Part shown: in pieces, positions 2,953 through 60,711 of the stretch
Layout: each line of letters begins with the position of its first letter
How positions within the stretch are numbered: position 1 is the first letter of the stretch
Assembly (NCBI GenBank): GCA_017961175.1
Contig: JAGCXV010000003.1
Span: 16,387 to 80,386 of the forward strand
DNA from: Bacteroidales bacterium
GTDB lineage: Bacteria; Bacteroidota; Bacteroidia; Bacteroidales; UBA932
Length of the DNA: 64,000 nt
Reading direction: 5' to 3'
The notes under the pieces: model-generated
Databases searched by the model: none
Seen by the model: the letters and a program-made list of their open reading frames with translations, nothing else
Told to the model about the DNA's origin: nothing
Program-made: the position numbers and the translations under genes

Positions 2953-2954
2953 AA

Positions 2955-4439: not shown

Positions 4440-4447
4440 AAACCGTT

Positions 4448-6472: not shown

Positions 6473-6488
6473 AGTATCTTGTTTATAA

Positions 6489-8198
6489 TTAACCCCTTAT
6501 CTTTTCTTCTACTATCTCCAGGATCTTCTTTTCCTCAGCGACAGCCTCAGCCGTGATCCTGTCTGCCTCGTTCATCAGTTCCTCTGCCTTCATCCTGTCT
6601 TTCAGGCCTTCGGCGTTGATGTGGACGTTGAGCCTTGCACCCATTACCGCACCCCTGGCTGCGATTGCGGCAACGCCGGCATCCGAAACGGAGTTAGGAT
6701 TTCCCTCTGATGCCATCGAGGAGGCAACTTCAAATACCTTGAAAGCAGTTTTGAGCGTTCTCAGAGGCACTTGTGTAGCATAAAGGGTAGCGGCTTCCAT
6801 TGCGGCAGCTCTTGCTTCCTTCTCTTCCGGTGTGCCCTTTGGCATTGAGAACACGTCCATTATCTTGTTGAATGCCGCGGTGTCTTCATCCACCAGAGCA
6901 ATCAGCTCGTTCATAAGGGCATTCCCCTTTTCTGCCCAGTCTGAGAACTCCTTCCAGCGGTCATCCCAACCCCTCTTGTGGGAAGACAGGTTTGCCACCA
7001 TCGTGGAAAGGGCTGCTCCCAGAGCTCCCATATATGCGGCAATGCTTCCGCCTCCAGGTGCAGGAGACTCACTTGCCGTCTCCACTGCAAAGTCCTTGCA
7101 GGTCATTCTCACAAGCCTCTCTTTCACAGCCATCTCCTTAGGGTCTTCCATCAGGAATTCTATCACCTTCTCGTGCGGGTTGAACGGCTTGAGGTCGTCC
7201 AGGCTCATGCTCTTTACCGCAATCTTCAGTATCTCGTCTTCGGAGATACCGAGAGATCTCTGCTGTTTCTCCAGATAGAACTTGCCGGCATCTATCAGAA
7301 CTCGCTTCGGCACCAGGCCCACAATCTCGGTTCCGGTAACCTTCAGGCCTCTTGCAGCTGCGGCGCGGCAAACTTCCTCATATGCCTTGTGAAGCGGAGT
7401 TGCCTCTATGTCAGTTATGTTCATGGATACCTGCGCAATGCCGTATTCGTCTATGTACCAGCCGATAGCCTTGCAACCCTTAAGGGTTCCAGGCTGCCAC
7501 AGGTCATTTCCGTTTTCATCCTTGAGCACCTTGCCGGTAAGGCTTCCGCCCTCACGCATCTTCCTTCCCTTCTCCCTGACGTCAAATGCCACGGCCATAG
7601 CCCTTCTTGTAGAAGTTGTATTAAGGTTATAGTTTACTGCGACAAGGAAATTCCTTGCTCCAACGTTGATGGCGCCGCTCTTTGCAACCACATCTGTATA
7701 TGCTCCAGGTCCGAAGTCCGGCATTCTGGCCGGGTCTACAACCTTCTCAGGCAGAGCCTCATACTCGCCGGCACGGCAAACAGCGAGGTTCTTCCTCTCA
7801 GGCTTGAATGCAGCGGCCTCATAGCAGTAGCAAGGTATCTGCTGCTCTTCAAAGATTCTCTTTGCCAAAGCCCTGGCCAGTTCTGCACACTCCTCCAGGG
7901 TAATGCCGGAAACCGGAATCAAAGGCAGCACGTCAGTTGCGCCGGACCTTGGGTGAGCTCCCTTGTGCACCCGCATGTCTATGAGTTCCGCAGCTTTCTT
8001 AACGCCCTGGAACGCAGCCTCTACCACATCCTCCGGACTTCCCACGAAGGTAACCACGGTACGGTTGGTGGCTTCTCCCGGATCCACGTCCAGAACCTTT
8101 ACTCCTTTTATCGCTGCAATCGCAGCAACTATCTTGTCAATAACTTCCCTGTTGCGCCCTTCGCTGAAATTGGGCACACATTCAATTATTCTTTTCAT
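6489..8198 (-). CDS. ftcD: Bifunctional glutamate formimidoyltransferase / formimidoyltetrahydrofolate cyclodeaminase
   Basis: 569 aa. N-terminal ECVPNFSEGR formiminotransferase signature. The C-terminal roughly 200 aa carry the cyclodeaminase motif SPAPGGGSIAAYMGALGAA. Confidence 0.85.
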   Translation of the reverse strand: MKRIIECVPNFSEGRNREVIDKIVAAIAAIKGVKVLDVDPGEATNRTVVTFVGSPEDVVEAAFQGVKKAAELIDMRVHKGAHPRSGATDVLPLIPVSGITLEECAELARALAKRIFEEQQIPCYCYEAAAFKPERKNLAVCRAGEYEALPEKVVDPARMPDFGPGAYTDVVAKSGAINVGARNFLVAVNYNLNTTSTRRAMAVAFDVREKGRKMREGGSLTGKVLKDENGNDLWQPGTLKGCKAIGWYIDEYGIAQVSMNITDIEATPLHKAYEEVCRAAAARGLKVTGTEIVGLVPKRVLIDAGKFYLEKQQRSLGISEDEILKIAVKSMSLDDLKPFNPHEKVIEFLMEDPKEMAVKERLVRMTCKDFAVETASESPAPGGGSIAAYMGALGAALSTMVANLSSHKRGWDDRWKEFSDWAEKGNALMNELIALVDEDTAAFNKIMDVFSMPKGTPEEKEARAAAMEAATLYATQVPLRTLKTAFKVFEVASSMASEGNPNSVSDAGVAAIAARGAVMGARLNVHINAEGLKDRMKAEELMNEADRITAEAVAEEKKILEIVEEKIRG

Positions 8199-21910: not shown

Positions 21911-22915
21911 ATGACAACTACAATTCTTCTGATCATTCTAGGCCTGGCGATGATAATCATAGGAGCCCACTTCCTTGTAACAGGTTCCTCAAGGATAGCC
22001 AGCCGTTTCGGAATCTCGGACATTATTATAGGTATGACCATCGTTGCAATCGGCACCAGCGCGCCGGAAATGGTGGTCTCCTTTATGGGAGCCATGAAGG
22101 GCAGCGTCGGACTTTCCGTCGGTAACATCCTGGGATCCAACATCTGCAACATATTGCTCATCATAGGATTGAGTTCCATAATCTACCCTATGACAGTATC
22201 AAGGATTAACGTGAACAGGGACATGCAGTTCATGCTTCTGTCTACAGTCGTGCTGATTCTCGTTTCCCTTGACGCCCAGATAGAAACCCTGACCATAGAC
22301 GACCAGATGACAGGAAACGTAATCTCCAGGACAGAGGGAATCATTCTCCTGCTGTTCTTCCTGGTGTTTATGTTCTACTCCTTCGCCAGCGCAAAAAGGC
22401 ACGAAGAGGCAACCAAAGAGTCAGAAGAGAAAAAAGAGAAAGAAGAGGAAAAGCCGGTTGTCAAGAAGAATTTCCTCCTCTCCCTTGTCATGTTCCTGGG
22501 AGGTCTCGCAGTCCTTATCTGGGGCGGTAACATACTGGTAGACAACGCAACAATACTTGCCAGGGCAAAGGGCGTCTCCGATACCCTCATTGGAGCAACC
22601 ATAGTCGCTATAGGAACCAGCCTTCCTGAACTTGCCGCCAGCGTTATGGCCGCCTGCCAGAAGAAGGTCGGAATCGCGATAGGAAACGTTATCGGATCAA
22701 ATATATTCAACGTCTTCCTGATTCTCGGAGGCTGCGCCACTGTTACCCAGCTGCCGCTGGCCACCGTAAACCACGTTCACTTCATCTTCCTGCTCCTGGC
22801 TACCCTGCTGTTCCTTGTATCGGCGAGGACAAGCTTCAAGATCAGGAGAATAGAAGGATTGATGCTGTTTGTGCTCTACATTCTCTACATAATTGTGACC
22901 ATTTCTTTGGCATAA
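21911..22915 (+). CDS. Ca2+/Na+ antiporter (YrbG/CaCA family)
   Basis: 334 aa. Two alpha-repeat motifs, GNILGSNICNILLIIG and GNVIGSNIFNVFLILG, are separated by a charged loop. Confidence 0.8.
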   Translation: MTTTILLIILGLAMIIIGAHFLVTGSSRIASRFGISDIIIGMTIVAIGTSAPEMVVSFMGAMKGSVGLSVGNILGSNICNILLIIGLSSIIYPMTVSRINVNRDMQFMLLSTVVLILVSLDAQIETLTIDDQMTGNVISRTEGIILLLFFLVFMFYSFASAKRHEEATKESEEKKEKEEEKPVVKKNFLLSLVMFLGGLAVLIWGGNILVDNATILARAKGVSDTLIGATIVAIGTSLPELAASVMAACQKKVGIAIGNVIGSNIFNVFLILGGCATVTQLPLATVNHVHFIFLLLATLLFLVSARTSFKIRRIEGLMLFVLYILYIIVTISLA

Positions 22916-22940: not shown

Positions 22941-22948
22941 TATATTTG
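22941..22948 (+). promoter_or_regulatory. -7 promoter box TATATTTG upstream of the MarR/Hdr-like operon
   Basis: Exact TAnnTTTG match 47 nt before the ATG at 22996. No good TTTG -33 element at canonical spacing. Confidence 0.35.
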
Positions 22949-22977
22949 TAATCGATTTATAAAGTAAAACCTCTTAC

Positions 22978-22996
22978 TATAATATTTCGTATTATA
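22978..22996. promoter_or_regulatory. 7-bp inverted repeat TATAATA-N5-TATTATA overlapping the MarR start codon (candidate operator)
   Basis: Read directly. It is AT-rich, so it could arise by chance. Confidence 0.2.
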
Positions 22997-23481
22997 TGAT
23001 ACTTAGTAAACAAATCGGGTTTTTCCTTAATCTTGTCCATAACAGGTTCAAGCAGTATGTTGCGGGGATTTTTGAAGAACATGGTTTCAACATCACTCCG
23101 GAGCAATTCCTGGTTATGGACGCACTCTGGGACGAAGGCGTCCTCACCCAGCAGCAGATTGCAGACTATCTGCTAAAAGACAAGAATTCCGTTGTTAAGC
23201 TCGTGGACGGGCTGGAAGACAGGAAACTGGTTCGCAGGACAAGCAACCCTAAAGACCGCCGGCAGAATCTCATTGAGGTAACTGATTATGCATTAAGCAT
23301 AAAAGATAAAGTTACCAAGGTCGCGATGGATGCGGTAGACAAGATCGTCAATGGCATACCAAAGGAAGATATGATGGCGTACATCCGGGTTCTGAGCAAG
23401 ATGGCGGAGAACATGAACAACGACATAGACCTCATGGCCCTTGCCGCAAAGTACCCTACCAACAATAAAGTAAAGGCATAG
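22996..23481 (+). CDS. MarR-family transcriptional regulator
   Basis: 161 aa winged-HTH with the typical ...DRRQNLIEVT... wing region. The stop abuts the next start. Confidence 0.8.
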   Translation: MILSKQIGFFLNLVHNRFKQYVAGIFEEHGFNITPEQFLVMDALWDEGVLTQQQIADYLLKDKNSVVKLVDGLEDRKLVRRTSNPKDRRQNLIEVTDYALSIKDKVTKVAMDAVDKIVNGIPKEDMMAYIRVLSKMAENMNNDIDLMALAAKYPTNNKVKA

Positions 23482-24177
23482 ATGGGAAAGCTATACGACA
23501 GACTGATGAAGGATTACAGACTCCGGGAGGGTCTGAATGCCTGTATAAACTGCGGTACCTGCACTGCCATCTGTCCGGCTGCAGAGTTCTACCGCTACGA
23601 TCCTAGACGAATCGTCGATATCGTTCAGCATCAGGACGATGAACAGATTGAAGAACTGCTCAAGAGCAATACTATCTGGTACTGTGGAGAGTGCATGAGT
23701 TGCGTTACCCGCTGCCCGAGAAGGAATGCTGCCGGATTGGTGATAATGGCTCTGAGAAACTTAGCTATAGAAACGGGCCTGTTCATGGAATCCGAGAAAG
23801 GCCGGCAAATGTATCTTCTTTGCAAAGATCTCAACCACAATGTGCTGAACTATGGTTACTGTGTCTACCCAAGGCTTTTCGGCTACAAGGAGCACCAGGA
23901 AGCCGGCTTGGTATGGGAATGGGTTCATGATAACATCGACGATGTATTTGACCGTCTCGGTGCCAACCTGGACAAGGACGGCCCTGGGGCAATGAGAAAG
24001 ATTCCTCAGAAAGATCTGGATGAGCTGAAGAGGATTTACGATATCACCGGTGCGACCGAGAGGCTGGAGCACGTACGCCAGGCAGGCTTGAAAAAGGCGG
24101 AAGAGCTGGGGCTTACTGAAGAAGAGTATTGCCAGAAGCTATACACCGAGTGCAGTCCTAAACATTTCAACCACTAG
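23482..24177 (+). CDS. HdrC-like 2x[4Fe-4S] protein
   Basis: 231 aa with CINCGTCTAICP and CGECMSCVTRCP motifs. Confidence 0.7.
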   Translation: MGKLYDRLMKDYRLREGLNACINCGTCTAICPAAEFYRYDPRRIVDIVQHQDDEQIEELLKSNTIWYCGECMSCVTRCPRRNAAGLVIMALRNLAIETGLFMESEKGRQMYLLCKDLNHNVLNYGYCVYPRLFGYKEHQEAGLVWEWVHDNIDDVFDRLGANLDKDGPGAMRKIPQKDLDELKRIYDITGATERLEHVRQAGLKKAEELGLTEEEYCQKLYTECSPKHFNH

Positions 24178-24180
24178 AAG

Positions 24181-25245
24181 ATGATTTACGAAGGAAAAAA
24201 GAAAATCTGGGCCGAATACCAGAAAGAGATACCGGAAGACCATTATTTCTATGTAAGGAGCTGTATCAGGCAGTCTTTCTTCCCCGCTTCCGAAGCAACT
24301 TTCCTGGACATAACCAGAAACAAACTGGGAAAGGATATATTCGAGACGGAGCACCACACCACTTGCGGAGGCATTGCTTACCACTCTGACACCATTCCGC
24401 AGGAAACCGTCATGACCATAATAGCCAGGCAGTTTGCCCTGATGCATAAATATGGCTATGAGAACTATGTATGCTCCTGCATCACATCCTTCGGCCTTTA
24501 CTGCGAGACTATGGAGACCTGGAGGGAATTCCCTGAACTTCAGCAGAAGATTGCCGAGAACCTATGGAAAACCTGCCACCTGGAATTTGCAAAGCCGAAG
24601 TTCCTGGTTCACGCCAGCGACCTTGTTTTCAAATACAGGATGCAGATCGCGGCAAAGAGCAAATTTAAGCTGGTGAACAAGAATACCGGAGAACCTCTCA
24701 GGGTTGTGGAGCATATAGGTTGCCACTATTCCAAGATGTTCCCTTCCAAAGGTGTGGGAGGAGCCGAATACCCTTATGTCCTGGTGGGAATGATTGAGGC
24801 CTGGGGAGGTCAGATCGTTGATTATCCGGAAAGGAGGCATTGCTGCGGATTCGGTTTCAGGCAGTATCTGATAAAAAGCAACAGAGGCTATTCGCTTTCC
24901 AACACCCACAAGAAATTCGAAAGTATGGAGCCGTTCAAACCGGACATGATAATCACAAACTGCCCCGGATGCCCTTATTTCCTGGACAGATGGCAGTATG
25001 TCATCGCCGAGACAGAAGGCAAGACCTACGGAGAAAACGGCCATGGAATACCGGTGTTCACCTATGAGGAAGTTGCCGGTCTTGTAATGGGTTACGACCC
25101 TTGGGACCTGGGTCTCCAGACACATCAGGTAAGCGTGGAACCGCTGTTAGACAAAATCGGAATACCATATGATCCAGCAAAGAAATATCTGGGCAAGAAC
25201 GGGAAATATCTCGGCGAGCCCCAAAAACCACAATGTCTGAAGTAA
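24181..25245 (+). CDS. HdrB-like CCG-domain protein
   Basis: 354 aa. C-terminal CCG signature RHCCGFG ... TNCPGCP. The N-terminal copy is degenerate (TTCGG). Confidence 0.7.
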   Translation: MIYEGKKKIWAEYQKEIPEDHYFYVRSCIRQSFFPASEATFLDITRNKLGKDIFETEHHTTCGGIAYHSDTIPQETVMTIIARQFALMHKYGYENYVCSCITSFGLYCETMETWREFPELQQKIAENLWKTCHLEFAKPKFLVHASDLVFKYRMQIAAKSKFKLVNKNTGEPLRVVEHIGCHYSKMFPSKGVGGAEYPYVLVGMIEAWGGQIVDYPERRHCCGFGFRQYLIKSNRGYSLSNTHKKFESMEPFKPDMIITNCPGCPYFLDRWQYVIAETEGKTYGENGHGIPVFTYEEVAGLVMGYDPWDLGLQTHQVSVEPLLDKIGIPYDPAKKYLGKNGKYLGEPQKPQCLK

Positions 25246-25249
25246 AGTT

Positions 25250-26263
25250 ATGAAAAACAACATATTGGTCATAGGAGGCGGACCTGCCGGACTGGAAGCC
25301 TCCGCAGTTTTGTCCCGGATGGGATACAATGTGATTCTGGCAGAAAAGGAAAAACGTCTGGGTGGACACCTTGCCAAATGGGACCGCCTGTTCCCGGACC
25401 AGACTCCGGCAAAGGAAGTTCTGGACGGCCTGCTGGACGGAATCAAGGATGTAAAATGCTTCACCGAGACAGACGTGAACTCCATAAACCTTTTGGATCG
25501 TTCCTTTAACGCCATGCTTTCCAACGGAATAACCATTCTGGCTGATGCAGTGCTTCTGGCTAGCGGATTCGATATGTTCAAAGCGGAAAAGAAGGAAGAA
25601 TACGGCTACGGCATATATGAAGGAGTTATGACCAACGCGGATATGGAGCAAGCTTTCAGGGAAGGCAAGACCTTCTCCCCTGCCCCGAAGGCCATAGGAT
25701 TCGTTCACTGCGTGGGGTCCCGAGACGAGAAAGCCGGCAACCCGGCCTGCTCAAAGGTATGCTGCGCAACGGCTGTAAAACAGGCGATTGAGGCCAAGGA
25801 GCTTTATCCTGATGCCAATGTTTACTGCTTCTATATGGACTTGAGAATGTTCGGCCGCCATTACGAGGACCTTTACCTCAGGGCACAGAAATCCGGCATA
25901 AGGTTCATAAGGGGAAGGGTAAGCGAGGTTTCCGAGACTGCGGAAGGAAGGCTGCTTATAAAAGCGGAAGACACTCTCTCCAGCAGACCGGTTAAAGTAA
26001 CGCTGGACCGCCTGGTTCTGATGGCAGGAATGAGGCCTTCAGAGGCTGGCCACAAAGTGGGCAGACAGCTGAATCTCAGTGTAGAAGAAGACGGATTCTT
26101 CTCTGCAAGGGACGGATTCCTCTCCCTCCAGAAAAGCAAGCTTCCGGGCCTGTTCTATGCTGGAGCCTGCACCGGACCGAAGACTCTCCCGGACACTCTC
26201 CACGAGGCTCGCAGCGCCGCTATGGAAATAGACCGTTACATTAAAGAAAACTTCAGGAAATGA
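25250..26263 (+). CDS. Short HdrA/QmoA-like FAD-dependent FeS flavoprotein
   Basis: 337 aa. VIGGGPAGLEAS dinucleotide fold and the HdrA-type CVGSRDEKAGNPACSKVCC motif. No ferredoxin insert domains. Confidence 0.7.
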   Translation: MKNNILVIGGGPAGLEASAVLSRMGYNVILAEKEKRLGGHLAKWDRLFPDQTPAKEVLDGLLDGIKDVKCFTETDVNSINLLDRSFNAMLSNGITILADAVLLASGFDMFKAEKKEEYGYGIYEGVMTNADMEQAFREGKTFSPAPKAIGFVHCVGSRDEKAGNPACSKVCCATAVKQAIEAKELYPDANVYCFYMDLRMFGRHYEDLYLRAQKSGIRFIRGRVSEVSETAEGRLLIKAEDTLSSRPVKVTLDRLVLMAGMRPSEAGHKVGRQLNLSVEEDGFFSARDGFLSLQKSKLPGLFYAGACTGPKTLPDTLHEARSAAMEIDRYIKENFRK

Positions 26264-26586
26264 TAGACTTCGGCTTTGGCGTCAGTCCAAGTTCGAGGAT
26301 CAACCTCGACAAGGCAGACAAGGAGAAATTCAATGAGCTGGCCATCGCTGAGCCCGATGTAGCCAAGTGCATGGCCTGCGGGAGCTGCTCTGCAAGCTGC
26401 ACGGCCGCCGCATTTGAAGACACAAGTCTCAGGAGAGCTATCCTTTCTCTTCAGAACGGCCTCTGCGATGATGCATCCAAATTACTGAGCCACTGTATGT
26501 TGTGCGGAAAATGCACTATGGTCTGCCCTAGGGGCATAAATACGCGCCACCTCATATTGTCAATCCAAAAAATCTACTCTCTATGA
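26260..26586 (+). CDS. Small ferredoxin-like protein (two Cys clusters)
   Basis: 108 aa with CMACGSCSASC and CMLCGKCTMVCP. ATGA overlaps with both neighbours. Confidence 0.65.
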   Translation: MIDFGFGVSPSSRINLDKADKEKFNELAIAEPDVAKCMACGSCSASCTAAAFEDTSLRRAILSLQNGLCDDASKLLSHCMLCGKCTMVCPRGINTRHLILSIQKIYSL

Positions 26587-28481
26587 TCCATTTACTTTCT
26601 GCCGCAGTGCATCAGATTACACCGGAAGGGATCATAGACAGATACCCTAACAGCTACAATCATTTTGTACTGCCGTTCGTTATAGGAATTACCTTCATCC
26701 TGATATACCTTTTAATAGGCCTGATCAGGATACTCTACCACCTGAGCGGAGAAGACAGGATCAAGCTTCTCAAGTCTCTCTTCAATCCAAAGACCGCATG
26801 GAAGAATATCAAGGATATATTCTGCGACTGCCTGCTGCACACCAAGATATGGAAGAGAAAGCCTCTTCTTGGATATATGCACTCGGCGATCGCCTTCGGA
26901 TGGTTCCTGCTTATCGTGGTGGGACATATCGAGGTATGGCTGTTTGCTCCGAGACATCTTTCCGGACTGACGGAAGGATCGCTGTACTACCCTATCTTCT
27001 ACCGCTTTTTCATCTGGATCAATCCGGCTCACGAAACGCTCAGGGGCTCCCTGTTCTTCTTCATAATGGACTTTCTGCTGCTGTATGTCCTAAGTGGCAT
27101 CGGATTGGCCATGTTCAAGAGAGTCAGGTCCATAGCCCTTGGAATGAGACATACCACCAAGCCTTCACTGGCAGACCGCGTTGCCCTTTACTGCCTGTGG
27201 CTTATCTTCCCTCTCAGACTCCTGGCGGAAGGTTTTACCGCAGACCTCAGCGGCGGAGGATTCCTCACCAGGCCGCTTAACTGGGTGTTCAGGGCTTTCT
27301 TCGGGAACGAGCTGAACTTCCTCCCTACCTGGTGGGCTTATTCCATCGTCCTGGGACTTTTCTTCGCTGCGATGCCGTTCTCCCGTTACATGCACATCCT
27401 GACCGAGCCTCTGCTGATACTTTTCCGCAACGCCGGCCTGAAAGTGCGCCATCCGAGAAAGGGATTCGCGGAGGCGGAAATCTACGCCTGCTCAAGCTGC
27501 GGACTCTGCCTGGATGCCTGCCCAATGAATGTCCAGAAGAAAAACCTCAAATACTCTTCCGTTTATTTCATGCGTTTCTTGCGCAGGCACAACAACAAGA
27601 AAACCAGAGAGATAGCAGACAAGTGCCTGATGTGCGGCAAGTGCTATGCGCTTTGCCCGGTGGGAGTGAATTCCCCTGCCATCAGACGCGCGATCAGGGA
27701 AACCAGGAACAATAAGATTGATTGCGACTACTCATATCTCGACAGCTATGCGGAGAAGTGTTCCGAGAACCCTAAATCCACAGGCAAGATCCTTTACTTT
27801 GCCGGCTGCATGAGCCATCTTACTCCAAGGATCATAAAGTCCGTGGAAACCATCCTCAAGGCCAGCGGACAGGATTACGAGTTCATGGACCGCAACGAGG
27901 GCATCTGCTGCGGCAGGCCTCTGATGCTTGCCGGAAGGACCGATGCCGCCCGCAAGACCATCGAGGCCAACAGTAAGATAATCAAGGACTCCGGATGCAC
28001 CACCCTGCTTCTGTCCTGCCCTATCTGCCTCAAGGTATTCAAGGAAGAATACGCCCTCAAGGGCATTCAGGTAATACATTACACACAGTTTGTTGACAAA
28101 CTCATAAAGGAAGGAAAACTTAAGGTTTCAAAGTCTTCTTCAGCGATAGTATATCACGACCCTTGCGAGCTTGGAAGAGGCTGCGGCATATACGAAGAGC
28201 CTAGGAATGTACTCAAGGCTGTCGCTGAGCTGAAAAAGGCTTCAAAGGAAAGGGACGAGAGCATCTGCTGCGGCTACAGCCTTGGCACCCTGACACTTGA
28301 CGAGAAAGACAAGGCAAAGATCGCCGAGAGTTCAGTAACCAGCCTTATGGCCGAGAATCCGGAACAGATAGTTACAGCCTGCCCTCTTTGCTACAGGGCA
28401 ATAAGGAGCAAGGCCGAAGTTCCTGTCAAGGACTTTGCCGAAATAGTTTGCGAGAATTTGGAAAACAATGATAAAAACTAA
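26583..28481 (+). CDS. Membrane-anchored FeS protein: cytochrome-b-like TM domain fused to an HdrD/DsrK-like module
   Basis: 632 aa. About five N-terminal TM helices carry His residues (YMHSAI, VGHIEV, RYMHIL). These are followed by CSSCGLCLDACP and CLMCGKCYALCP. Two full CCG domains follow (GCMS..ICCGRP..SCPIC and DPCELGR..ICCGYS..ACPLC). Confidence 0.7.
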   Translation: MIHLLSAAVHQITPEGIIDRYPNSYNHFVLPFVIGITFILIYLLIGLIRILYHLSGEDRIKLLKSLFNPKTAWKNIKDIFCDCLLHTKIWKRKPLLGYMHSAIAFGWFLLIVVGHIEVWLFAPRHLSGLTEGSLYYPIFYRFFIWINPAHETLRGSLFFFIMDFLLLYVLSGIGLAMFKRVRSIALGMRHTTKPSLADRVALYCLWLIFPLRLLAEGFTADLSGGGFLTRPLNWVFRAFFGNELNFLPTWWAYSIVLGLFFAAMPFSRYMHILTEPLLILFRNAGLKVRHPRKGFAEAEIYACSSCGLCLDACPMNVQKKNLKYSSVYFMRFLRRHNNKKTREIADKCLMCGKCYALCPVGVNSPAIRRAIRETRNNKIDCDYSYLDSYAEKCSENPKSTGKILYFAGCMSHLTPRIIKSVETILKASGQDYEFMDRNEGICCGRPLMLAGRTDAARKTIEANSKIIKDSGCTTLLLSCPICLKVFKEEYALKGIQVIHYTQFVDKLIKEGKLKVSKSSSAIVYHDPCELGRGCGIYEEPRNVLKAVAELKKASKERDESICCGYSLGTLTLDEKDKAKIAESSVTSLMAENPEQIVTACPLCYRAIRSKAEVPVKDFAEIVCENLENNDKN

Positions 28482-28486
28482 ATTAT

Positions 28487-29773
28487 ATGGAAATCAAACC
28501 GACTAGTTACCGCCTGGAAAACTGCCTGACGCACAGAGTGTTCAAAGACACCGGATGGCTTATGGCAGATCCGGAGGATTCCCGCCCGTCCCTTGTAAGG
28601 GCCATCTATGACAAGAAGCAGATTGAGTTCAAGGATCCGTCTTTCGGAATCTACAGGTTCGCCGACTGGCTGCCTGTAAACCGCTCCCTGAAAGGTTCCT
28701 GCGCTCCGGTTACCTACCGAAGCGAGGGCCTGGCCAGGAAACTGGGCCTTAAGAACCTCTTCATAACCTACAGCGGATGGTGGCCGGAAAAAGGCGCAAC
28801 CATGCGTACGGGCTCCTTCAAGGAAACCGAGGCTTACTCAGTATGCGGAAGGCTTGACGCAGACAACAAGAGGATTCTGGTGGTGGCTTCCGCAGGAAAC
28901 ACCGCAAGGGCTTTCTCCCAGGTTTGCTCGGACAACAACATTCCTCTGGTAATCGCCATCCCTGAAGACAATCTTGACGCGCTTTGGTTCAAGGATAGGC
29001 TAAACGATTGTGTAAAAGTGATTTGCCCGCCTAAGGGAAGCGATTATTTCGACGCTATCGCCCTGGCTGCCAAGCTGAACGCATCCCCTCTCTTCCTGGA
29101 GGAAGGAGGAGCCAAGAATGTGGCAAGAAGAGACGGAATGAGCACGACTGTTCTCTCCGCGGCAGAAGTTATCGGAAAGATTCCTGACGCCTATTTCCAG
29201 GCTGTAGGAAGCGGCACGGGAACCATCGCAGCCTACGAGGCCAATCTCCGCCTTCTGGAAGACGGACGCTTCGGAGATAATCTCATGAAGCTCATACCAT
29301 CCCAGAATGTTCCGTTCACTCCTATGTACGATGCCTGGAAGGCACTCAGCCGCAGCCTTCTGCCAATGGACGAGAACGAGGGCAGGATCAAGGCTCTCCA
29401 GATCAAGGCTTCCGTGCTCAGCAACCGCAAACCGCCGTTCTCCGTCCCTGGAGGCCTCTTCGACGCCCTTATGGCCACCAAGGGAGAATTCCAGAAAGTC
29501 ACAAACGGAGAACTCACCGATGCCTGTGAGATGTTCGCCGAGCTGGAAGGCAGCGATATCCATCCGGCCGCCGGCGTTGCTGTTGTCAGCCTTGCCAAGG
29601 CCCTGAAGGAAGGCCAGATAACCCCGGAGCAGAACATTATGCTGAACGTTACCGGAGGAGGCGAGAAACGCTTCAAGAAAGAATTCAACTATGTTAACGC
29701 AAAAGCTGACCTGATCCTTTCTCCGGAATGCAGTGCAACCGAAGTGATAGACAAGGTTACAGCATTGTTCTAG
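28487..29773 (+). CDS. Cysteate synthase-like PLP enzyme (threonine synthase fold)
   Basis: 428 aa. PLP-lysine context TGSFKETEA, preceded by GWWPEKGA, and ASAGNTARAF. Judged closer to cysteate synthase than to ThrC by eye; not verified. Confidence 0.55.
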   Translation: MEIKPTSYRLENCLTHRVFKDTGWLMADPEDSRPSLVRAIYDKKQIEFKDPSFGIYRFADWLPVNRSLKGSCAPVTYRSEGLARKLGLKNLFITYSGWWPEKGATMRTGSFKETEAYSVCGRLDADNKRILVVASAGNTARAFSQVCSDNNIPLVIAIPEDNLDALWFKDRLNDCVKVICPPKGSDYFDAIALAAKLNASPLFLEEGGAKNVARRDGMSTTVLSAAEVIGKIPDAYFQAVGSGTGTIAAYEANLRLLEDGRFGDNLMKLIPSQNVPFTPMYDAWKALSRSLLPMDENEGRIKALQIKASVLSNRKPPFSVPGGLFDALMATKGEFQKVTNGELTDACEMFAELEGSDIHPAAGVAVVSLAKALKEGQITPEQNIMLNVTGGGEKRFKKEFNYVNAKADLILSPECSATEVIDKVTALF

Positions 29774-29802
29774 TCAACGGCCAGGATCATCAAACAAAAA
29801 AA

Positions 29803-29830
29803 ACGGGGCGGAAAAATCCGTCCCGTTTTT
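29803..29830. terminator. Bidirectional rho-independent terminator
   Basis: ACGGGGCGGA-aaaa-TCCGTCCCGT hairpin (one G-U pair). It is flanked by an A-run on one side and a T-run on the other. Sits between convergent genes. Confidence 0.7.
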
Positions 29831-29848: not shown

Positions 29849-30091
29849 TTATTTCTTGCTGCTGTCTGACTTACTAGCGTCCTTCTTGGAAGCCTCTTTG
29901 TTGTTCTTGTCCTTGCTGCTGTCTTTCTTGGTGTCTGTCTTCTTGTCGGTAGTCTTAACCTTCTCACCGCTCTTATCCTTCTTCTTTGATTTCTCGAAGG
30001 TCTGAGGCTCTGAAACAGAGGTTGAAGCCATAGCGTAAGTTCCGCCGAAGAGGAACAGTGCAGCGCACATCAAAGCAATGATCTTTTTCAT
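29849..30091 (-). CDS. Small secreted K/D/S-rich low-complexity protein
   Basis: 80 aa. Signal peptide MKKIIALMCAALFLFGGTYAMA, then KKKDKSGEKVKTTDKKTDTKKDSSKDKNNKEASKKDASKSDSSKK. Confidence 0.55.
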   Translation of the reverse strand: MKKIIALMCAALFLFGGTYAMASTSVSEPQTFEKSKKKDKSGEKVKTTDKKTDTKKDSSKDKNNKEASKKDASKSDSSKK

Positions 30092-30243: not shown

Positions 30244-30546
30244 TTACTTCTTGATAGTCTGGGCAGCGTCCTTTACAGCCTCAACTGCACCCTTAACTGC
30301 CTCTGCACCTTCCTTAACCTCGTTAGCAACTTCCTCTACCTTGTTAGCCTCAGCCTCAACAGCCTGGGCAGCGTCAGCTGCAGCAACAGCAGTAGAATCA
30401 GCAACCTCGTTAGCAACTTCAGTAGCAACCTCAGTTACCTCAGCAGCAGCCTCGGTAGCCTCAGCAGCAGCCTCCTGTGCAGGAGCGTTATTCTTGCATG
30501 CTACGAATGCAAGAGCTGCAACGGCGATAAACAATACCTTCTTCAT
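30244..30546 (-). CDS. Small A/E/V-rich lipoprotein
   Basis: 100 aa. MKKVLFIAVAALAFVAC lipobox, then helical-looking repeats of A/E/V/T (AEVTEVATEVANEVA...). Confidence 0.6.
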   Translation of the reverse strand: MKKVLFIAVAALAFVACKNNAPAQEAAAEATEAAAEVTEVATEVANEVADSTAVAAADAAQAVEAEANKVEEVANEVKEGAEAVKGAVEAVKDAAQTIKK

Positions 30547-30836: not shown

Positions 30837-32744
30837 ATGAAAATATCGTCTATTGAGGATTTGAAAAAAATCCGTGAAAGAGCGAGTGTTCACCTTAAGC
30901 CAAGGGAGCAAAGCGACCATCAGGATTCATCTGCAACCTGCGGCCTGAAGAAGGGAACACCCAAAATACAGATCCTGACCTGCGGAGGAACAGGATGCAA
31001 GGCTTCCCAAAGCCATCTTATCGCCGATAATTTCAAGAAACTGATAGCAGAAAACAATCTTGAAGGCAAGGTTGAGGTCATCACGACAGGTTGCTTCGGT
31101 TTCTGCGAAAAAGGCCCGATCGTTAAAATAATTCCTGACAACACTTTCTACACTAAGGTTAAGCCAGAGGATGCGGAAGAGATTTTCACCACGCATATCA
31201 TCGGCGGAAAGAGAGTCAACAGGCTGCTGTATGTGGATCCGAAGCGCAAGACCACCGTTTCCGATTCCAAGCACATGGACTTCTACCGCAAGCAGGTGAG
31301 AATCGCGCTTAGGAACTGCGGACTCATTGATCCTGAGGATATTGTAGAGTACATAGCTCGCGACGGTTACTTCGCGCTTGCTGATTGTCTTCTGAACCGA
31401 AGCCCTAAAGCCGTGATAGATGAAATCAAGAAATCCGGCCTCAGGGGAAGAGGCGGCGGAGGATTCCCTACCGGCCTCAAGTGGGAGATTGCTTCCAAGA
31501 ACCAGTCAAAAGAAAAGTATGTTGTCTGCAATGCGGACGAGGGAGACCCTGGAGCGTTTATGGACCGCTCCATCATGGAGGGAGACCCTAACTCTATCGT
31601 AGAGGCTATGGCCATTTGCGGATATGCAATCGGAGCCACCCACGGCCTGGTTTACATCAGGGCAGAGTATCCTCTTGCTGTTGAGCGCCTTAAGATTGCC
31701 ATCAAGCAGGCAAGGGAACTCGGGCTTCTCGGAAAGAAGATCCTCGGAACTTCATTCTCCTTCGACATCAACATCAGGTACGGTGCCGGCGCATTCGTTT
31801 GCGGAGAAGAGACCGCGCTTATCCACTCTATGGAAGGCAGGAGAGGAGAACCTACCCTCAAGCCGCCTTTCCCTGCAGAAAGCGGATATAACGGCAAGCC
31901 TACCAACGTGAACAATGTCGAGACATTTGCCAACGTTCCTATCATAATCAACAAGGGAGCAGACTGGTTCGCCTCTATAGGCAGCGACCGTTCAAAGGGA
32001 ACCAAGGTGTTCGCCCTTGCCGGTAAAATCAACAATGTAGGCCTTATAGAAGTCCCGATGGGTACAACCTTGAGAGAGGTTATCTTCGATATCGGAGGCG
32101 GAATCAAGGGTGGCAAGCAGTTCAAGGCTGTTCAGACCGGAGGTCCTTCCGGAGGTTGCCTTACCGAAAAGCACCTGGATACCCCTATCGACTTCGACAC
32201 TCTGACCGCTGCCGGCAGTATGATGGGTTCCGGCGGTATGATCGTCATGGACGAGGATAACTGTATGGTTTCAGTTGCCCGTTTCTATCTCGACTTCATC
32301 GTCGGTGAGTCCTGCGGAAAATGCACCCCTTGCCGTATCGGCAACAAGAGGATGCTGGAAATCCTGGACAAGATCATAGCCGGAAACGGAACGATGCAGG
32401 ATCTTGACAAGCTCAAGACTCTTGCCGGAGTTATCAAGGACACAGCGCTTTGCGGACTCGGACAGACTTCCCCTAACCCTGTTCTCTCTACTCTGAGCAA
32501 TTTCTGGGATGAGTATGTGGAGCACGTAAGGGATAAGAAGTGCCGCGCTAAGCAGTGCAAGGCTCTGCTCACCTATGTTATCAATCCTGAGAAGTGTATC
32601 GGCTGCCACGCCTGCGCGATCGGCTGCCCTGCCGGAGCAATCGAAGGCGTTCCTAGAAAGCCTCACGCAATCATCTTCTCCAAGTGCATCAAGTGCGGAA
32701 TGTGCATGTCACGATGCAAGTTCAAAGCAGTATCAGTTGTCTAA
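30837..32744 (+). CDS. hydB: [FeFe]-hydrogenase flavoprotein subunit (NuoF-like, HydB/HndC type)
   Basis: 635 aa. N-terminal thioredoxin-like [2Fe-2S] Cys set, GRGGGGFPTGLKWE FMN site, ESCGKCTPCR, and a C-terminal 2x[4Fe-4S] domain. Confidence 0.85.
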   Translation: MKISSIEDLKKIRERASVHLKPREQSDHQDSSATCGLKKGTPKIQILTCGGTGCKASQSHLIADNFKKLIAENNLEGKVEVITTGCFGFCEKGPIVKIIPDNTFYTKVKPEDAEEIFTTHIIGGKRVNRLLYVDPKRKTTVSDSKHMDFYRKQVRIALRNCGLIDPEDIVEYIARDGYFALADCLLNRSPKAVIDEIKKSGLRGRGGGGFPTGLKWEIASKNQSKEKYVVCNADEGDPGAFMDRSIMEGDPNSIVEAMAICGYAIGATHGLVYIRAEYPLAVERLKIAIKQARELGLLGKKILGTSFSFDINIRYGAGAFVCGEETALIHSMEGRRGEPTLKPPFPAESGYNGKPTNVNNVETFANVPIIINKGADWFASIGSDRSKGTKVFALAGKINNVGLIEVPMGTTLREVIFDIGGGIKGGKQFKAVQTGGPSGGCLTEKHLDTPIDFDTLTAAGSMMGSGGMIVMDEDNCMVSVARFYLDFIVGESCGKCTPCRIGNKRMLEILDKIIAGNGTMQDLDKLKTLAGVIKDTALCGLGQTSPNPVLSTLSNFWDEYVEHVRDKKCRAKQCKALLTYVINPEKCIGCHACAIGCPAGAIEGVPRKPHAIIFSKCIKCGMCMSRCKFKAVSVV

Positions 32745-32755
32745 AACCGCCAGCT

Positions 32756-34519
32756 ATGAAACAGAATATATCACTGATAATAGATAATCATAAAGTCGTT
32801 GTTCCTGAGGGCACAACGATACTGGATGCGGCCAAGAGCATAGGAATCGTCATCCCTACGCTTTGCCACATGAACCTCAAGGGAACCTGCGCAGACAACC
32901 ATCCGGCATCCTGCCGCGTGTGCGTTGTTGAAGTAAAGGGCAGGAGAAACCTTGCCCCTGCCTGCAGCACTGCCTGCACGGAAGGAATGGAGGTCAAGAC
33001 CAGCTCCATCAGGGTGATAAGGGCGCGCAAGACCGTCATCGAGCTCATGCTCAGCGACCATCCTAACGAGTGCCTTACCTGCCCTAAGAGCGGAAAATGC
33101 GAGCTCCAGGCAGTTACCCAGCATCTTTCCATCAACGAGACTCCATACGCAGGAGAACTTTCGCTGAGAAAGAAGGAAATGACCGCCTCCATTATAAGGA
33201 ATATGGACAAGTGCATCTATTGCCGCAGATGCGAGACAATGTGCAATGTCTACCAGACGGTTGGAGCTCTGGGTGCTGTGGGAAGAGGTTTCAACACCAC
33301 GATCGCCCCTTCTTTCAACAGGAATCTCAAGGATACTGACTGCACATATTGCGGCCAGTGCGTTGCAGTCTGCCCTGTTGGTGCTCTCACGGAAAGGACT
33401 TATACAGACCAGCTTATAGACGACCTGGAGAATCCTGAAAAGACCGTTATCGTCCAGACCGCTCCGGCTGTAAGGGTTGCCCTGGGAGAAGAGTTCGGCA
33501 ACGCTCCAGGCAGCATCGTGACCGGCAAACTGGTTGCAGCTCTCAAGGACCTGGGATTCGACTATGTATTCGATACAGACTTCTCAGCAGACGCCACCAT
33601 CATGGAGGAAGGAAGCGAGCTTCTGGAAAGGCTCACCAAGTTCCTTAATGGAGACAAGAGCGTTCCAATTCCTCTTATGACTTCCTGCTGCCCTGCCTGG
33701 GTGAACTTCTACGAGCATAATTTCCCGGATCTTCTCCAGTATCCGTCAACGGCACGTTCTCCTCAGCAGATGTTCGGTGCCATTGCCAAGAACTACTGGG
33801 CAGAGAAGATGAACATTCCACGCGAGAAACTTGTTGTTGTTTCCGTAATGCCTTGCCTTGCAAAGAAATTCGAGTGCCAGAGGCCTGAGTTCTCAACCAA
33901 CGGCAATCCGGATGTGGACTATTCAATCACCACCAGGGAGCTTGCAACCCTCATCCGCAGGGCCAACATCAACTTCGAGACCCTGCCTCATATGGAGTTT
34001 GACAATCCTCTTGGAGAAAGTTCCGGCGCCGCAGCTATCTTCGGCTCTACCGGCGGTGTACTTGAGGCAGCCCTCAGAACCGCATACGAGCTCTACACCA
34101 AGAAACCTCTTCCAAAGATAGACTTTGAGGAAGTTAGAGGTATGGACAGCCTCAGGACCGCAACAATCGATTTCGACGGCTTTGCTCTCAATGTTGCAAT
34201 AGCCTACGGTCTCGGCAACGCCCGCAAGCTTATGGAAGAGATCCGCGCAGGCAAGTGCAAATATCACGTGATTGAGATCATGGCCTGCCCGGGTGGCTGC
34301 ATCGGCGGCGGCGGACAGCCTCTCCATCACGGAGACTTCGAGGTTATCAAGGCCCGCCAGAAGGCAATCTACGAGGAAGACCAGAATATGCCTCTGAGAA
34401 AGAGCCACGAGAACAAGAGTATCATTGAGATGTACGAGAAGTATTTCGGCAAGCCTCTCAGCGAAAAGGCCCACGCCCTTCTCCACACCCATTATTCAGA
34501 CAAAACAATAAAGTACTAG
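32756..34519 (+). CDS. hydA: [FeFe]-hydrogenase catalytic subunit
   Basis: Start placed at the ATG at 32756 (MKQNISLIIDN...), 12 nt after the hydB stop. H-cluster motifs TSCCPAW, MPCLAKKFE and EIMACPGGCIGGGGQP are present. Confidence 0.9.
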   Translation: MKQNISLIIDNHKVVVPEGTTILDAAKSIGIVIPTLCHMNLKGTCADNHPASCRVCVVEVKGRRNLAPACSTACTEGMEVKTSSIRVIRARKTVIELMLSDHPNECLTCPKSGKCELQAVTQHLSINETPYAGELSLRKKEMTASIIRNMDKCIYCRRCETMCNVYQTVGALGAVGRGFNTTIAPSFNRNLKDTDCTYCGQCVAVCPVGALTERTYTDQLIDDLENPEKTVIVQTAPAVRVALGEEFGNAPGSIVTGKLVAALKDLGFDYVFDTDFSADATIMEEGSELLERLTKFLNGDKSVPIPLMTSCCPAWVNFYEHNFPDLLQYPSTARSPQQMFGAIAKNYWAEKMNIPREKLVVVSVMPCLAKKFECQRPEFSTNGNPDVDYSITTRELATLIRRANINFETLPHMEFDNPLGESSGAAAIFGSTGGVLEAALRTAYELYTKKPLPKIDFEEVRGMDSLRTATIDFDGFALNVAIAYGLGNARKLMEEIRAGKCKYHVIEIMACPGGCIGGGGQPLHHGDFEVIKARQKAIYEEDQNMPLRKSHENKSIIEMYEKYFGKPLSEKAHALLHTHYSDKTIKY

Positions 34520-34536
34520 CCTAAAACAGAACAGAC

Positions 34537-35013
34537 ATGGAAAAATTATGCAATAGTGTTGTTGAAAAGATAAGGGCTATCTGCGACAAATTCGGTAACA
34601 AGCCGGGCGAGCTTATCAACATACTTCACGAGTCTCAGCACACTGTAGGCTACCTTCCTATGGAGGTTCAGGCCATCATCGCCGAGAAACTCAACATCCC
34701 TGTCAGCAGGGTTTACGGAGTTGTGACCTTCTATGCGTTCTTCACCATGGTTCCAAAGGGCAAGCATCCTGTTTCCGTTTGCCTTGGAACTGCATGCTAT
34801 GTAAGGGGTTCCGAGAAGATTCTGGAAGAGTTCAAGAGAACTCTGGGCATAGATGTCGGAGAAACCACGGAAGACGGACGCTTCTCCCTGGACTGCCTCA
34901 GGTGCGTCGGCGCCTGCGGCCTTGCTCCTGTTGCAATGGTTGGAGAGAAGGTTTACGGCCATCTCAATCCTGCAGACATCAAGAAGATCATAAAGGATTT
35001 CTCTCAGGACTAG
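34537..35013 (+). CDS. hydC: [FeFe]-hydrogenase NuoE-like [2Fe-2S] subunit
   Basis: 158 aa with the CLGTACYVRG ... CLRCVGACGLAP pattern. Confidence 0.85.
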   Translation: MEKLCNSVVEKIRAICDKFGNKPGELINILHESQHTVGYLPMEVQAIIAEKLNIPVSRVYGVVTFYAFFTMVPKGKHPVSVCLGTACYVRGSEKILEEFKRTLGIDVGETTEDGRFSLDCLRCVGACGLAPVAMVGEKVYGHLNPADIKKIIKDFSQD

Positions 35014-46853: not shown

Positions 46854-47861
46854 TTACTTCTTCACAACCATCTTGGAGAGCTTTTCGGTAAGCATAGGGA
46901 TGATCTTGTGAACATCACCTACTATACCTACATCGGCGACACCGAAGATAGGAGCGAACTTGTCCTTGTTGATGGCGATGATGAAATCACTCTCTTCCAT
47001 ACCTGCAAGGTGCTGGATGGCACCGGAGATACCGCAAGCCATGTAGAGGGCAGGACGGACGGTCTTACCGGTCTGTCCAACCTGAACCTCGTGAGGCATT
47101 ACGCCGGCGTCTACCATAGCACGTGAAGATGATACCTGGGCACCAATAACGTCTGCCAGAGCCTGGAGCTTGGCAAATCCCTCAGGATTTCCTACTCCAC
47201 GGCCTCCAGAAACGAGGATCTTGGCCTCGGTGATATCTACCTTACCCTTGTTCTCCTTAACGCTCTCTACGAGCTTTACCTTGAACTTGGAAGCGTCGAA
47301 TGTTGGAGCGAAGCTCTCGATGACACCCTGATGGTTCTCATCTCTTGTGCCCTTCTGCATAACGCCTGGACGTACAGTGGACATCTGAGGCCTGTGCTCG
47401 GTACACATAATGGTAGCCATCAGGTTACCGCCGAATGCAGGACGAGTCATCAGGAGCTCTCTTTCCTCAGAGATATCCAGAGCCGTGCAGTCTGCAGTCA
47501 GACCGGTACCAAGCCTTGAAGCCAGCCTAGGACCGAGGTCTCTTCCGATGGTGGTTGCACCAAGGAGCACGATGCTTGGTTTGTATTTGTCGATAGCCTG
47601 GCTCATGGCCTGAGAGTACTGCTCGGTCAGATAGTGCTCAAGTTCAGGAGCATCCATAACGATAACCTTGTCGGCTCCCCATGCCACGAGTTCCTTTGCG
47701 CTTTCAGTATTCTTGTATCCAGGGAAGAAAGCCACAACTTCCTCGCCCAGCTTGTCTGCAAGCACTCTTGCCTTTCCTAAAAGTTCGAGAGCAACAGACT
47801 GGATCTTTCCGTCTCTTTGTTCGGCGAAAACATATACGCCTTTATAGTCTGATTTATTCAT
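46854..47861 (-). CDS. etfA: Electron transfer flavoprotein alpha subunit
   Basis: 335 aa with the [17 protein letters not shown] motif. Confidence 0.9.
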
Positions 47862-47880
47862 ATCTTTCAGTATTAGGCAA

Positions 47881-48663: not shown

Positions 48664-48675
48664 AATCTGATGTTT

Positions 48676-49818: not shown

Positions 49819-49828
49819 ATCAATAATA

Positions 49829-50494: not shown

Positions 50495-50526
50495 AATCTT
50501 GATATTTAATGAATTAATATTGTTAG

Positions 50527-51315: not shown

Positions 51316-51317
51316 AT

Positions 51318-52877: not shown

Positions 52878-52906
52878 ATTCAGTCAGTTTGTCGTGAAGT
52901 ACTTAT

Positions 52907-54307: not shown

Positions 54308-54309
54308 TC

Positions 54310-55326: not shown

Positions 55327-55336
55327 TGTGCATCAG

Positions 55337-56677: not shown

Positions 56678-56688
56678 AAAACCAGTTA

Positions 56689-57762: not shown

Positions 57763-57799
57763 ATTGTTTGTCTTGTTTTAAAAATGTTCAACGATTTAA

Positions 57800-58633: not shown

Positions 58634-58640
58634 ATCGCAT

Positions 58641-59030: not shown

Positions 59031-59031
59031 A

Positions 59032-59706: not shown

Positions 59707-59765
59707 AAGAAAACGATTTGAATATTATTTGTTTTGAAATTTGATTTTTTACTTCGTAAACCAAG

Positions 59766-60672: not shown

Positions 60673-60711
60673 CACACATTATAACCATTAACAATTTAAA
60701 ACTTTAGTACA

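Follow-up and report, generated by a model that had tools for sequence, protein, structure and literature searches.

Sulfite is toxic, and it is scarce in the sulfide-rich, oxygen-free gut. What could supply it to an enzyme that joins it to O-phosphoserine is the question raised by a seven-gene locus in a stretch of 64,000 nucleotides (64 kb; the whole stretch is called the window below) from a Bacteroidales bacterium of gut or rumen, contig JAGCXV010000003.1, in which five redox genes stand between a gene for a MarR-family regulator (gene 1) and a gene for cysteate synthase (CS, gene 7). The five redox genes, 2 to 6, are referred to here as the Hdr-like block, and their order is abbreviated C-B-A-Fdx-gene 6. 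CS follows gene 6 persistently, in a fixed order and at short distance, the block is found inside a sulfonolipid operon, and it shares a palindrome with sulfonolipid genes; together these make it probable, in our judgment, that the block belongs to cysteate and sulfonolipid synthesis. The features of the locus are listed below.

22941-22948, + strand: -7 promoter box TATATTTG of the Bacteroidetes type (TAnnTTTG), recognized by its position and its conservation in orthologous loci
22961-22982, + strand: palindromic operator-like site AAAGTAAAACCTCTTACTATAA, half-sites AGTAA / TTACT, a putative MarR site
22996-23481, + strand: gene 1, MarR-family regulator, 161 aa, no cysteine
23482-24177, + strand: gene 2, HdrC-like subunit with 2x[4Fe-4S], 231 aa
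24181-25245, + strand: gene 3, HdrB-like CCG protein, 354 aa
25250-26263, + strand: gene 4, short HdrA-type FAD/[4Fe-4S] flavoprotein (sHdrA-like), 337 aa
26260-26586, + strand: gene 5, 2x[4Fe-4S] ferredoxin, 108 aa
26583-28481, + strand: gene 6, membrane subunit, EtfD/HdrDE-like quinone-linked module, 632 aa
28487-29773, + strand: gene 7, CS, 428 aa
29799-29830, + strand: intrinsic terminator, a hairpin followed by a T run, recognized by its folding energy relative to shuffled sequences

An earlier note, made from the letters and a list of open reading frames (ORFs), had taken gene 7 for a CS and not a threonine synthase, and our searches bear this out. Gene families were assigned by Pfam and NCBIfam profile searches, together with sequence matches in the PDB. 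Gene 7 scored 450.3 bits against the CS model TIGR03844 (cutoff 324.9), whereas the best ThrC model gave 63.9 bits against a cutoff of 303. Its residues 3-428 align with residues 4-429 of PDB entry 9k3c, 'Cysteate synthase', with an E value of 4e-158, and the motifs GWWPEKGA and GSFKETEA are found in the translation. Gene 7 is therefore predicted to catalyze the conversion of O-phosphoserine and sulfite to cysteate, and by this assignment it is the first enzyme of the sulfonolipid (capnine/sulfobacin) pathway. A cysteate acyltransferase (SulA/CFAT) was not found in the 64-kb window, where CS is the sole gene of that pathway.

The ORF listing reproduced the seven + strand frames of the earlier note, with junctions of 0, +3, +4, -4, -4 and +5 nt. 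The TAnnTTTG box upstream of the operon was also located, as TATATTTG, 48 nt ahead of the marR ATG. Octamers of this type are not enriched in the window (31 counted and 33.5 expected), so the value of the box rests on its position and on its conservation in orthologous loci, where it keeps the same spacing to the palindrome. The hairpin after gene 7 is indeed a lone terminator, the sole strong one on the + strand between 22800 and 30200; it forms 14 pairs with a dG of -22.1 kcal/mol (z -6.6), and none of 200 shuffles folded equally well. Gene 1 encodes a winged-helix MarR domain (Pfam MarR/MarR_2, E 5e-12), and its orthologues, 45-86% identical, head arrangements of block plus CS, of the block only, and of CS only. 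The best explanation of this arrangement of letters is that marR, the Hdr-like block and CS form one transcription unit under a MarR repressor.

The attachment of CS to the block was examined from both ends. In the CS-centered scan, one genome was taken per species, giving 80 Bacteroidales loci with CS identities of 58-89%. In 42 of the 80, among several unrelated flanks, CS comes immediately after gene 6, and in 35 of those 42 it adjoins the complete block. The survey thus recovered the block-CS synteny that the earlier note had asked about. The conserved unit is (marR)-C-B-A-Fdx-gene 6-CS, and its flanks vary (carB/NaCa, carB/RmuC, RumA/MscS, NAGLU and others). Wherever the two adjoin, CS is the final gene, on the same strand and immediately 3' of gene 6, even at CS divergence down to 58%. 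On a neighbor-joining tree of CS the adjacency state requires at least nine changes, the inferred root being 'adjacent', and within each of three contexts, conserved in other respects, loci differ in whether the block stands immediately upstream of CS. At L040 the block lies 7 kb away from CS.

In L029 and L032 a channel of the formate/nitrite family (FNT) stands in place of the block, giving marR-FNT-CS in an otherwise identical context. At L037 hdrC and hdrB have been lost and the order is marR-A-Fdx-gene 6-FNT-CS. The positions of the channel gene are these:

L029, 9153-9977: FNT channel, between marR and CS
L032, 9161-9985: FNT channel, between marR and CS
L037, 4565-5407: FNT channel, between gene 6 and CS

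Because the channel replaces the block where the context is otherwise identical, the exchange suggests that block and channel supply the same small anion, and a small sulfur anion could enter the cell through the FNT protein. A second transporter, a SulP-family protein (DauA-like, with a STAS domain), adjoins CS in 25 loci, for example at 11328-13064 of L023, with none in the window; its highest score is for a DauA-like dicarboxylate carrier, though under the cutoff of that model. A Na/Ca-exchanger family protein (PF01699) is encoded at 21911-22915 of the window and recurs beside the block or CS in L171-L176, L183, L064 and L069, in some loci 3 nt before hdrC or directly ahead of CS.

The palindrome is a further tie between the block and sulfonolipid genes. 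From 30 distinct orthologous sites a position weight matrix was derived, and with it the window palindrome at 22961-22982 scored 31.3 bits, the sole site in the 64 kb to reach 14 bits or more. Its consensus, ATAGTAAAAGnnnTTACTATAA, directly follows the TAnnTTTG box upstream of marR and recurs in dozens of orthologous loci. Box and palindrome together precede marR where block and CS are both present and where the block stands alone. Of the three marR-CS loci, L050 has them too, while in L029 and L032 they are weak. A conserved palindrome that overlaps the promoter region of gene 1 is the layout of a MarR operator at the sequence level, and we presume it to be the binding site of the MarR protein.

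The same palindrome also heads two operons that have no marR, L060 and L066. In L060, from a Rikenellaceae metagenome-assembled genome (MAG), the palindrome is followed by VOC, CFAT, SDR, HdrC, HdrB, HdrA, Fdx, gene 6 and CS, all on a single strand, with gaps of -8 to +15 nt and two overlaps. The CFAT of this operon matches PDB entries 7u7h (543 bits) and 28eh, 'Cysteate-C-fatty acyltransferase' (539 bits), and matches serine palmitoyltransferase with 231 bits. In L066, where the block is absent, the palindrome is followed by VOC, CFAT (93% identical to the L060 protein) and CS. The first gene of both CFAT-CS operons encodes a two-domain VOC/glyoxalase-like protein of 356 aa (L060 1908-2978, L066 7642-8703). 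The sulfonolipid link proposed in the earlier note is therefore upheld in part: in L060 the block sits between CFAT plus SDR and CS, behind the palindrome that precedes it elsewhere, but 41 of 51 block-centered loci have no CS within 10 kb.

That last figure comes from a block-centered scan of metagenomes with an alignment of gene 3, which returned 80 loci at 80-99% identity, not de-replicated and hence redundant. Only 51 had enough downstream sequence to judge, and 10 of these have CS. It is the first of several observations that weigh against a role of the block in cysteate synthesis. The block-only loci have the order (marR)-C-B-A-Fdx-gene 6 in at least five unrelated flank contexts, with RsgA, met-zincin, Sel1, permease and TonB receptor genes as neighbors, and also pseudouridine synthase and RumA. 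In the CS-centered scan, gene 6 is not adjacent to CS in 37 of the 80 loci (one more could not be judged), among them those of Alistipes, Tidjanibacter, Draconibacterium and Maribellus. The palindrome is absent upstream of CS in most CS-only, Alistipes-type loci, with a moderate site in L082, so a MarR regulon cannot be claimed there. Finally, L060 is the single MAG contig on which CFAT, block and CS were seen together in one operon, and L066 supports the pairing of CFAT with CS. Among the HdrB proteins nearest to that of L060, only a NaCa-block-CS-MscS context was recovered. The block is thus not confined to the surroundings of CS.

Abundance points the same way. Clustering at 90% identity divides the gene 3 family into 2713 clusters, and some of these contain thousands of proteins; a cluster of 2115 members represents the block alone, one of 3505 members the block with CS, and one of 4929 members, labeled Alistipes sp. 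by some sources, marR with the block alone. Since most block-centered loci are without CS, the block is, on the gene neighborhoods surveyed, a self-contained and very widespread Bacteroidales module, to which CS is attached in only some lineages.

These results can be read to mean that the block is a general quinone-linked complex, for disulfide and thiol homeostasis or for respiration, with a substrate unrelated to cysteate, and that its place near CS reflects shared ancestry or the convenience of a common regulator. Such a reading would account for the many block-centered loci without CS nearby and for the roughly half of CS loci without the block, for the position of the block behind the housekeeping genes RsgA, pseudouridine synthase and RumA, for the size of the gene 3 family, and for the fact that no sulfur carriers were found. 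It does not, however, account for the fixed order, in which CS always closes the unit, right behind gene 6 and on its strand, at CS identities down to 58% and with differing flanks. Nor does it account for the location of the block inside the CFAT-SDR-CS operon of L060, for the identical palindrome ahead of the block and of the sulfonolipid genes of L060 and L066, or for the anion channel that takes the position of the block. We consider a general role unlikely, while giving it serious weight.

The Pfam scan of genes 2-6 for CCG, Fer4 and HdrA domains agreed with the domain calls of the first reading, and none of the five proteins scored above the curated NCBIfam cutoff of any named Hdr, Qmo, Dsr or Tmc family (HdrC 89 bits against 350, HdrB 133 against 450, HdrA 250 against 1100). 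Gene 2 is HdrC-like, with a Pfam Fer4 dicluster and a PDB match to the HdrC chain 5odc_C (E 1e-13). The two CxxCxxCxxxCP motifs reported for it read CINCGTCTAICP and CGECMSCVTRCP in the translation, and all eight cluster cysteines of the two CxxCxxCxxxC motifs are invariant among 34 orthologues. Gene 5 is, as proposed, a stand-alone ferredoxin (Pfam Fer4_8 and related families, Fer4 dicluster), with eight of eight cysteines invariant among 32 orthologues.

Gene 3 has the CCG signature ascribed to it, with HCCGFG and NCPGCP both present; Pfam places it as a CCG, HdrB-like protein, and it matches HdrB in the PDB over its full length (E 3.5e-28). It is the most conserved protein of the block, at 68-97% identity across loci where CS shows 58-89%. 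An orthologue from the isolate 'Bacteroidales bacterium WCE2004' has the accession SKC37734.1. In the orthologue alignment, the cysteines of the C-terminal CCG half (C181, C221, C222, C261 and C264) are all invariant. In the N-terminal half only C28, C62 and C100 are invariant, along with H59 and H68. Because this half is atypical, the chemistry of the protein may differ from that of HdrB, which is a further point against the oxidative model set out below. The N-terminal variant, with a single cysteine in 'TCxG' and with 'C(V/I)TS(F/Y)G' replacing CxxC, is common to the unnamed HdrB-like proteins P0573, P0592, P0594, P0597 and P0688 (30-35% identity), and such a variant may define a separate HdrB subclass. 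In L178, a distant relative whose gene 3 homologue is 47% identical, a gene with a Nitro_FeMo-Co domain, which resembles dinitrogenase cofactor-binding proteins, lies at 1935-2306 between the HdrC-like and HdrB-like genes.

Gene 4 has the length of 337 aa and the motifs GGGPAG, CVGSRDE and CSKVCC given for it, and is HdrA-like by profile, with a match that covers only the core of the 770-aa HdrA models. Methanogen HdrA, of about 650 aa, likewise matches it by its core only. The best PDB match is 6tjr (349 aa; residues 4-326 of gene 4, E 3e-60), which we take to be the sHdrA of Hyphomicrobium denitrificans and which its depositors named 'Fumarate reductase/succinate dehydrogenase flavoprotein domain protein'. 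Residues C154, C167, C171, C172 and C193 of gene 4 are invariant among orthologues and include the four cluster cysteines.

Gene 6 contains Fer4 and two CCG stretches (Pfam and NCBIfam), and its AlphaFold model (predicted local distance difference test, pLDDT, 77.4) has five long membrane helices. The best PDB sequence match is EtfD of Mycobacterium smegmatis (9ojn; E 6e-17, identity 16%), and the best fold match of the model is the same entry over the whole chain (TMq 0.60, E 2e-19). Orthologues conserve H86, H100, H115 and H271, together with 18 cluster cysteines (eight plus ten), which make up two cubane [4Fe-4S] sites and two complete five-cysteine CCG sites. One haem-b ligand has been mapped, H271, which aligns with the EtfD haem ligand His241. 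Five transmembrane helices (TM), a haem-b histidine, two cubanes and two CCG domains in one chain constitute the EtfD/HdrDE architecture, of which class gene 6 is a member. The architecture described in the earlier note, about five TM fused to a module with two CCG domains, is therefore correct, but by sequence and by fold EtfD/HdrDE-type quinone reductases are closest to it, and not DsrK or Qmo specifically. By analogy with these proteins, we infer that gene 6 would wire its Fe-S clusters via haem b to menaquinone.

Taken together, these subunits could form a five-protein complex, with a cytoplasmic sHdr-like core of genes 2-4, a ferredoxin, and an EtfD/HdrDE-like membrane protein. Sulfide or sulfane sulfur would be oxidized to sulfite at the HdrB-like site, and electrons would pass from HdrC to the HdrA flavin, then to ferredoxin, to gene 6 and to menaquinone, a pool that in Bacteroidales would drain to fumarate reductase. 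Sulfite would be taken at once by CS, which would join it to O-phosphoserine and deliver cysteate for the sulfonolipid head group. The redox potentials are about -116 mV for HSO3-/HS-, about -74 mV for menaquinone and about +30 mV for fumarate, so the oxidation of sulfide to sulfite with menaquinone and fumarate is feasible. From evidence that is comparative throughout we infer the stoichiometry of such a complex, its substrate, the direction of its electrons and sulfite as its product. The model as a whole, a menaquinone-linked sHdr-like complex that oxidizes sulfide or sulfane sulfur to sulfite for CS, is put forward tentatively, with a likelihood that we place a little under even. Its most specific form, a minimal, lipoate-independent, menaquinone-reducing 'assimilatory sulfide oxidase' of the sHdr type that feeds sulfite to CS for sulfonolipids in strictly anaerobic gut and rumen Bacteroidales, is possible but more doubtful still.

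A search for the usual partners of such chemistry weighs against the oxidative model. The earlier note had found no TusA/DsrE/LbpA-type carriers and no sulfonolipid acyltransferase in the window, and none of them is in the 64 kb; nor did Pfam annotation of the window reveal a rhodanese, sulfate-assimilation genes or a lipoate-binding protein. LbpA, TusA, DsrE and rhodanese, described as constant companions of sHdr, were found neither in the window nor in the loci. Escherichia coli TusA and GlpE used as tblastn queries, a search of low sensitivity, had no match in any locus. With E. coli GcvH as query, GcvH-like matches of 45-50% identity turned up in three of about 180 loci, none of them next to the block.

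The same proteins could also work in the opposite direction, with the complex splitting the S-S bond of a sulfonate (thiosulfate, S-sulfocysteine or S-sulfoglutathione), which would release sulfite for CS and leave a thiol or sulfide. Menaquinol, reduced ferredoxin or both would provide the electrons, which might be merged at the HdrA flavin. Reduction of S-S bonds is what CCG proteins of the HdrB/HdrD type carry out, gene 6 retains both five-cysteine sites, and an HdrA-type flavin with a ferredoxin is the hardware of electron bifurcation and confurcation, by which the potential of thiosulfate cleavage, about -400 mV, could be reached. The SulP transporter beside CS in 25 loci could import such a substrate, and the synteny and operator evidence fits a reductive complex as well as an oxidative one. 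Gene 4, however, is of the short sHdrA type and has no ferredoxin-like domains of the kind found in bifurcating HdrA, and menaquinol alone falls far short as a reductant. The top-scoring model for the SulP protein is a dicarboxylate carrier, and no thiosulfate-handling gene, whether for rhodanese, Phs or a CysK2-type enzyme, was seen. Reductive release is accordingly improbable in our estimate, if worth keeping in mind.

Sulfite being toxic, a co-expressed detoxifying redox system would make sense, and the complex might instead remove free sulfite or reactive sulfane sulfur via the quinone pool, with CS drawing its sulfite from another route. The same synteny fits, as does the presence of the block at loci without CS alongside. 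But a complex of this sort would draw on the very sulfite that CS needs, neither the window nor the loci contain genes for another supply of sulfite (CysH, AprAB, Xsc, IslA or similar), and the exchange of the block for FNT fits supply better than removal, which leaves detoxification very improbable. That gene 6 is an ordinary EtfD accepting electrons from the EtfAB encoded at 46854-48663 for lysine and butyrate fermentation, with genes 2-5 as accessories, is hardly credible: gene 6 is EtfD-like and EtfAB with acyl-CoA dehydrogenase lies 17 kb away in the window, but gene 6 is always accompanied by HdrCBA and ferredoxin, has a complete five-cysteine site where EtfD has a four-cysteine linear cluster, and has no EtfAB beside the block in about 130 block-bearing loci judged by inspection of gene order, without a dedicated EtfAB search.

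Other genes of the window bear less on these subjects. Two small low-complexity proteins with signal-peptide-like starts and no Pfam family, one rich in Lys, Ser and Asp and the other in Ala and Glu, are encoded between CS and the hydrogenase operon (29849-30091 and 30244-30546, - strand). The operon itself, HydB/HydA/HydC of an [FeFe]-hydrogenase (30837-35013), begins 1 kb downstream of CS, a proximity that the earlier note thought possibly relevant. Homologues of HydB, HydA and HydC occur beside the block only in L004, L087, L088 and L090, the four nearest relatives, and the proximity is therefore coincidental. On the - strand at 1726-8198, genes for imidazolonepropionase, histidine ammonia-lyase, urocanase and formiminotransferase-cyclodeaminase form a histidine utilization cluster, and the window also encodes carAB and a Ser/Thr kinase. 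Between about 40000 and 46100 the GC content falls to 0.32-0.40, compared with about 0.50 elsewhere, in a stretch that codes for surface-type proteins (LRR, Big_2) and for one resembling the AbiEii toxin, and that may be an acquired island. Positions 46854-62412 encode EtfAB, acyl-CoA dehydrogenase and CoA transferase, along with what looks like a full set of enzymes for lysine fermentation (lysine 2,3- and 5,6-aminomutases, Kdd, Kce, crotonase and 3-hydroxyacyl-CoA dehydrogenase).

In the gut, the sulfonolipids of Alistipes, Odoribacter and their relatives are abundant, and these lipids have effects on the immune system (PMC11525784). If the block supplies sulfite, the sulfonolipid pathway would be completed, an Hdr/sHdr-type complex would be shown to act in biosynthesis without a lipoate carrier, and, in one of the dominant phyla of the gut, sulfur assimilation would be tied to the menaquinone pool in a new way. 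An assimilatory sulfide oxidase, if this is what the complex is, would give Hdr-like complexes a physiological role and an architecture that are both new, and would explain how anaerobes obtain sulfite for sulfonate biosynthesis. The same gap in the source of sulfite may apply to the cysteate-dependent synthesis of coenzyme M in methanogens. The conserved palindrome offers a handle for defining the sulfonolipid regulon. Even with another substrate, the block would be a very widespread respiratory-type module of Bacteroidales, with an HdrB-like protein in thousands of sequence clusters.

Compared with known systems, the locus touches the published sulfonolipid pathway (CS, SulA/CFAT/CapB and ketocapnine reductase) through gene 7, its first enzyme, and through CFAT, which is co-operonic in L060 and L066. 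The sulfonolipid genes of Alistipes finegoldii are reported as scattered. The descriptions of the pathway that were consulted name neither a redox complex nor an origin for the sulfite. The word 'sulfite' is absent from those sulfonolipid papers that were searched for it, so no source of sulfite is named there. Full-text literature searches found no link between an Hdr-like complex and cysteate or sulfonolipid synthesis, nor any such link with Alistipes, in agreement with the earlier note, and no paper describing the Hdr-like block module was found.

QmoABC and DsrMK(JOP) are likewise quinone-linked, Hdr-related modules of sulfur metabolism. The scores of the block are far from theirs, with 47 bits for QmoC (cutoff 300) and 55 bits for DsrK (cutoff 400), and the locus has one HdrA-like gene, no fusion of HdrC with cytochrome b, and no AprAB, DsrAB or DsrC. 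The methanogenic HdrABC (5odc, 8rvu, 9sfi) is homologous to genes 2 and 3 and to the core of gene 4. The differences are these: scores lie far below the cutoffs, gene 4 is without the N-terminal and ferredoxin domains of HdrA, the N-terminal CCG half of gene 3 is degenerate, and Mvh and Fdh partners are missing, as are coenzyme M and coenzyme B. Gene 6 shares five TM, the haem-b histidine, two cubanes and two CCG domains with mycobacterial EtfD (Rv0338c/MSMEG_0690; 9ojn) and with methanogen HdrDE. Unlike EtfD, which has a four-cysteine linear [3Fe-4S] site, it keeps five cysteines in both CCG sites, as HdrD and HdrB do; it is also missing the long disordered C-terminus of EtfD, and its genetic partners are HdrCBA and ferredoxin, whereas the partner of EtfD is ETF.

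The sHdr complexes are reported to oxidize sulfane sulfur to sulfite, type II sHdr clusters route electrons to menaquinone via an EtfD-like EMO, and sulfur transferases (TusA, DsrE, rhodanese) have been reported as always accompanying sHdr (PMC11094781). We compared the block with the gene orders of type I (shdrC1B1AHC2B2) and type II (shdrC1B1AHB3-etfAB-emo). Several differences are apparent. At the scope of the locus and the window, the block is without genes for LbpA, lipoate maturation, TusA, DsrE and rhodanese; its cluster has no EtfAB, and a ferredoxin occupies the position of sHdrH. Membrane anchor and second Fer4+CCG module form a single protein here, an arrangement undescribed for sHdr. 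Its hosts are fermentative strict anaerobes and not sulfur oxidizers, and its apparent role is biosynthetic and not energy-yielding. There are also likenesses. Block and sHdr have the same C-B-A gene order, followed by a second Fer4+CCG module behind a small gene, and the same short HdrA (337 aa here and 349 aa in 6tjr), which aligns over its full length. Like type II sHdr, the block has an EtfD/EMO-type membrane protein directed toward menaquinone, and the reported product of sHdr, sulfite, is the co-substrate of the neighboring CS. Thus, although the LbpA and sulfur-transferase genes that go with sHdr are missing, the short HdrA and the C-B-A order with a second module are both present, and in the way its gene content suggests that it would work, the block most resembles sHdr.

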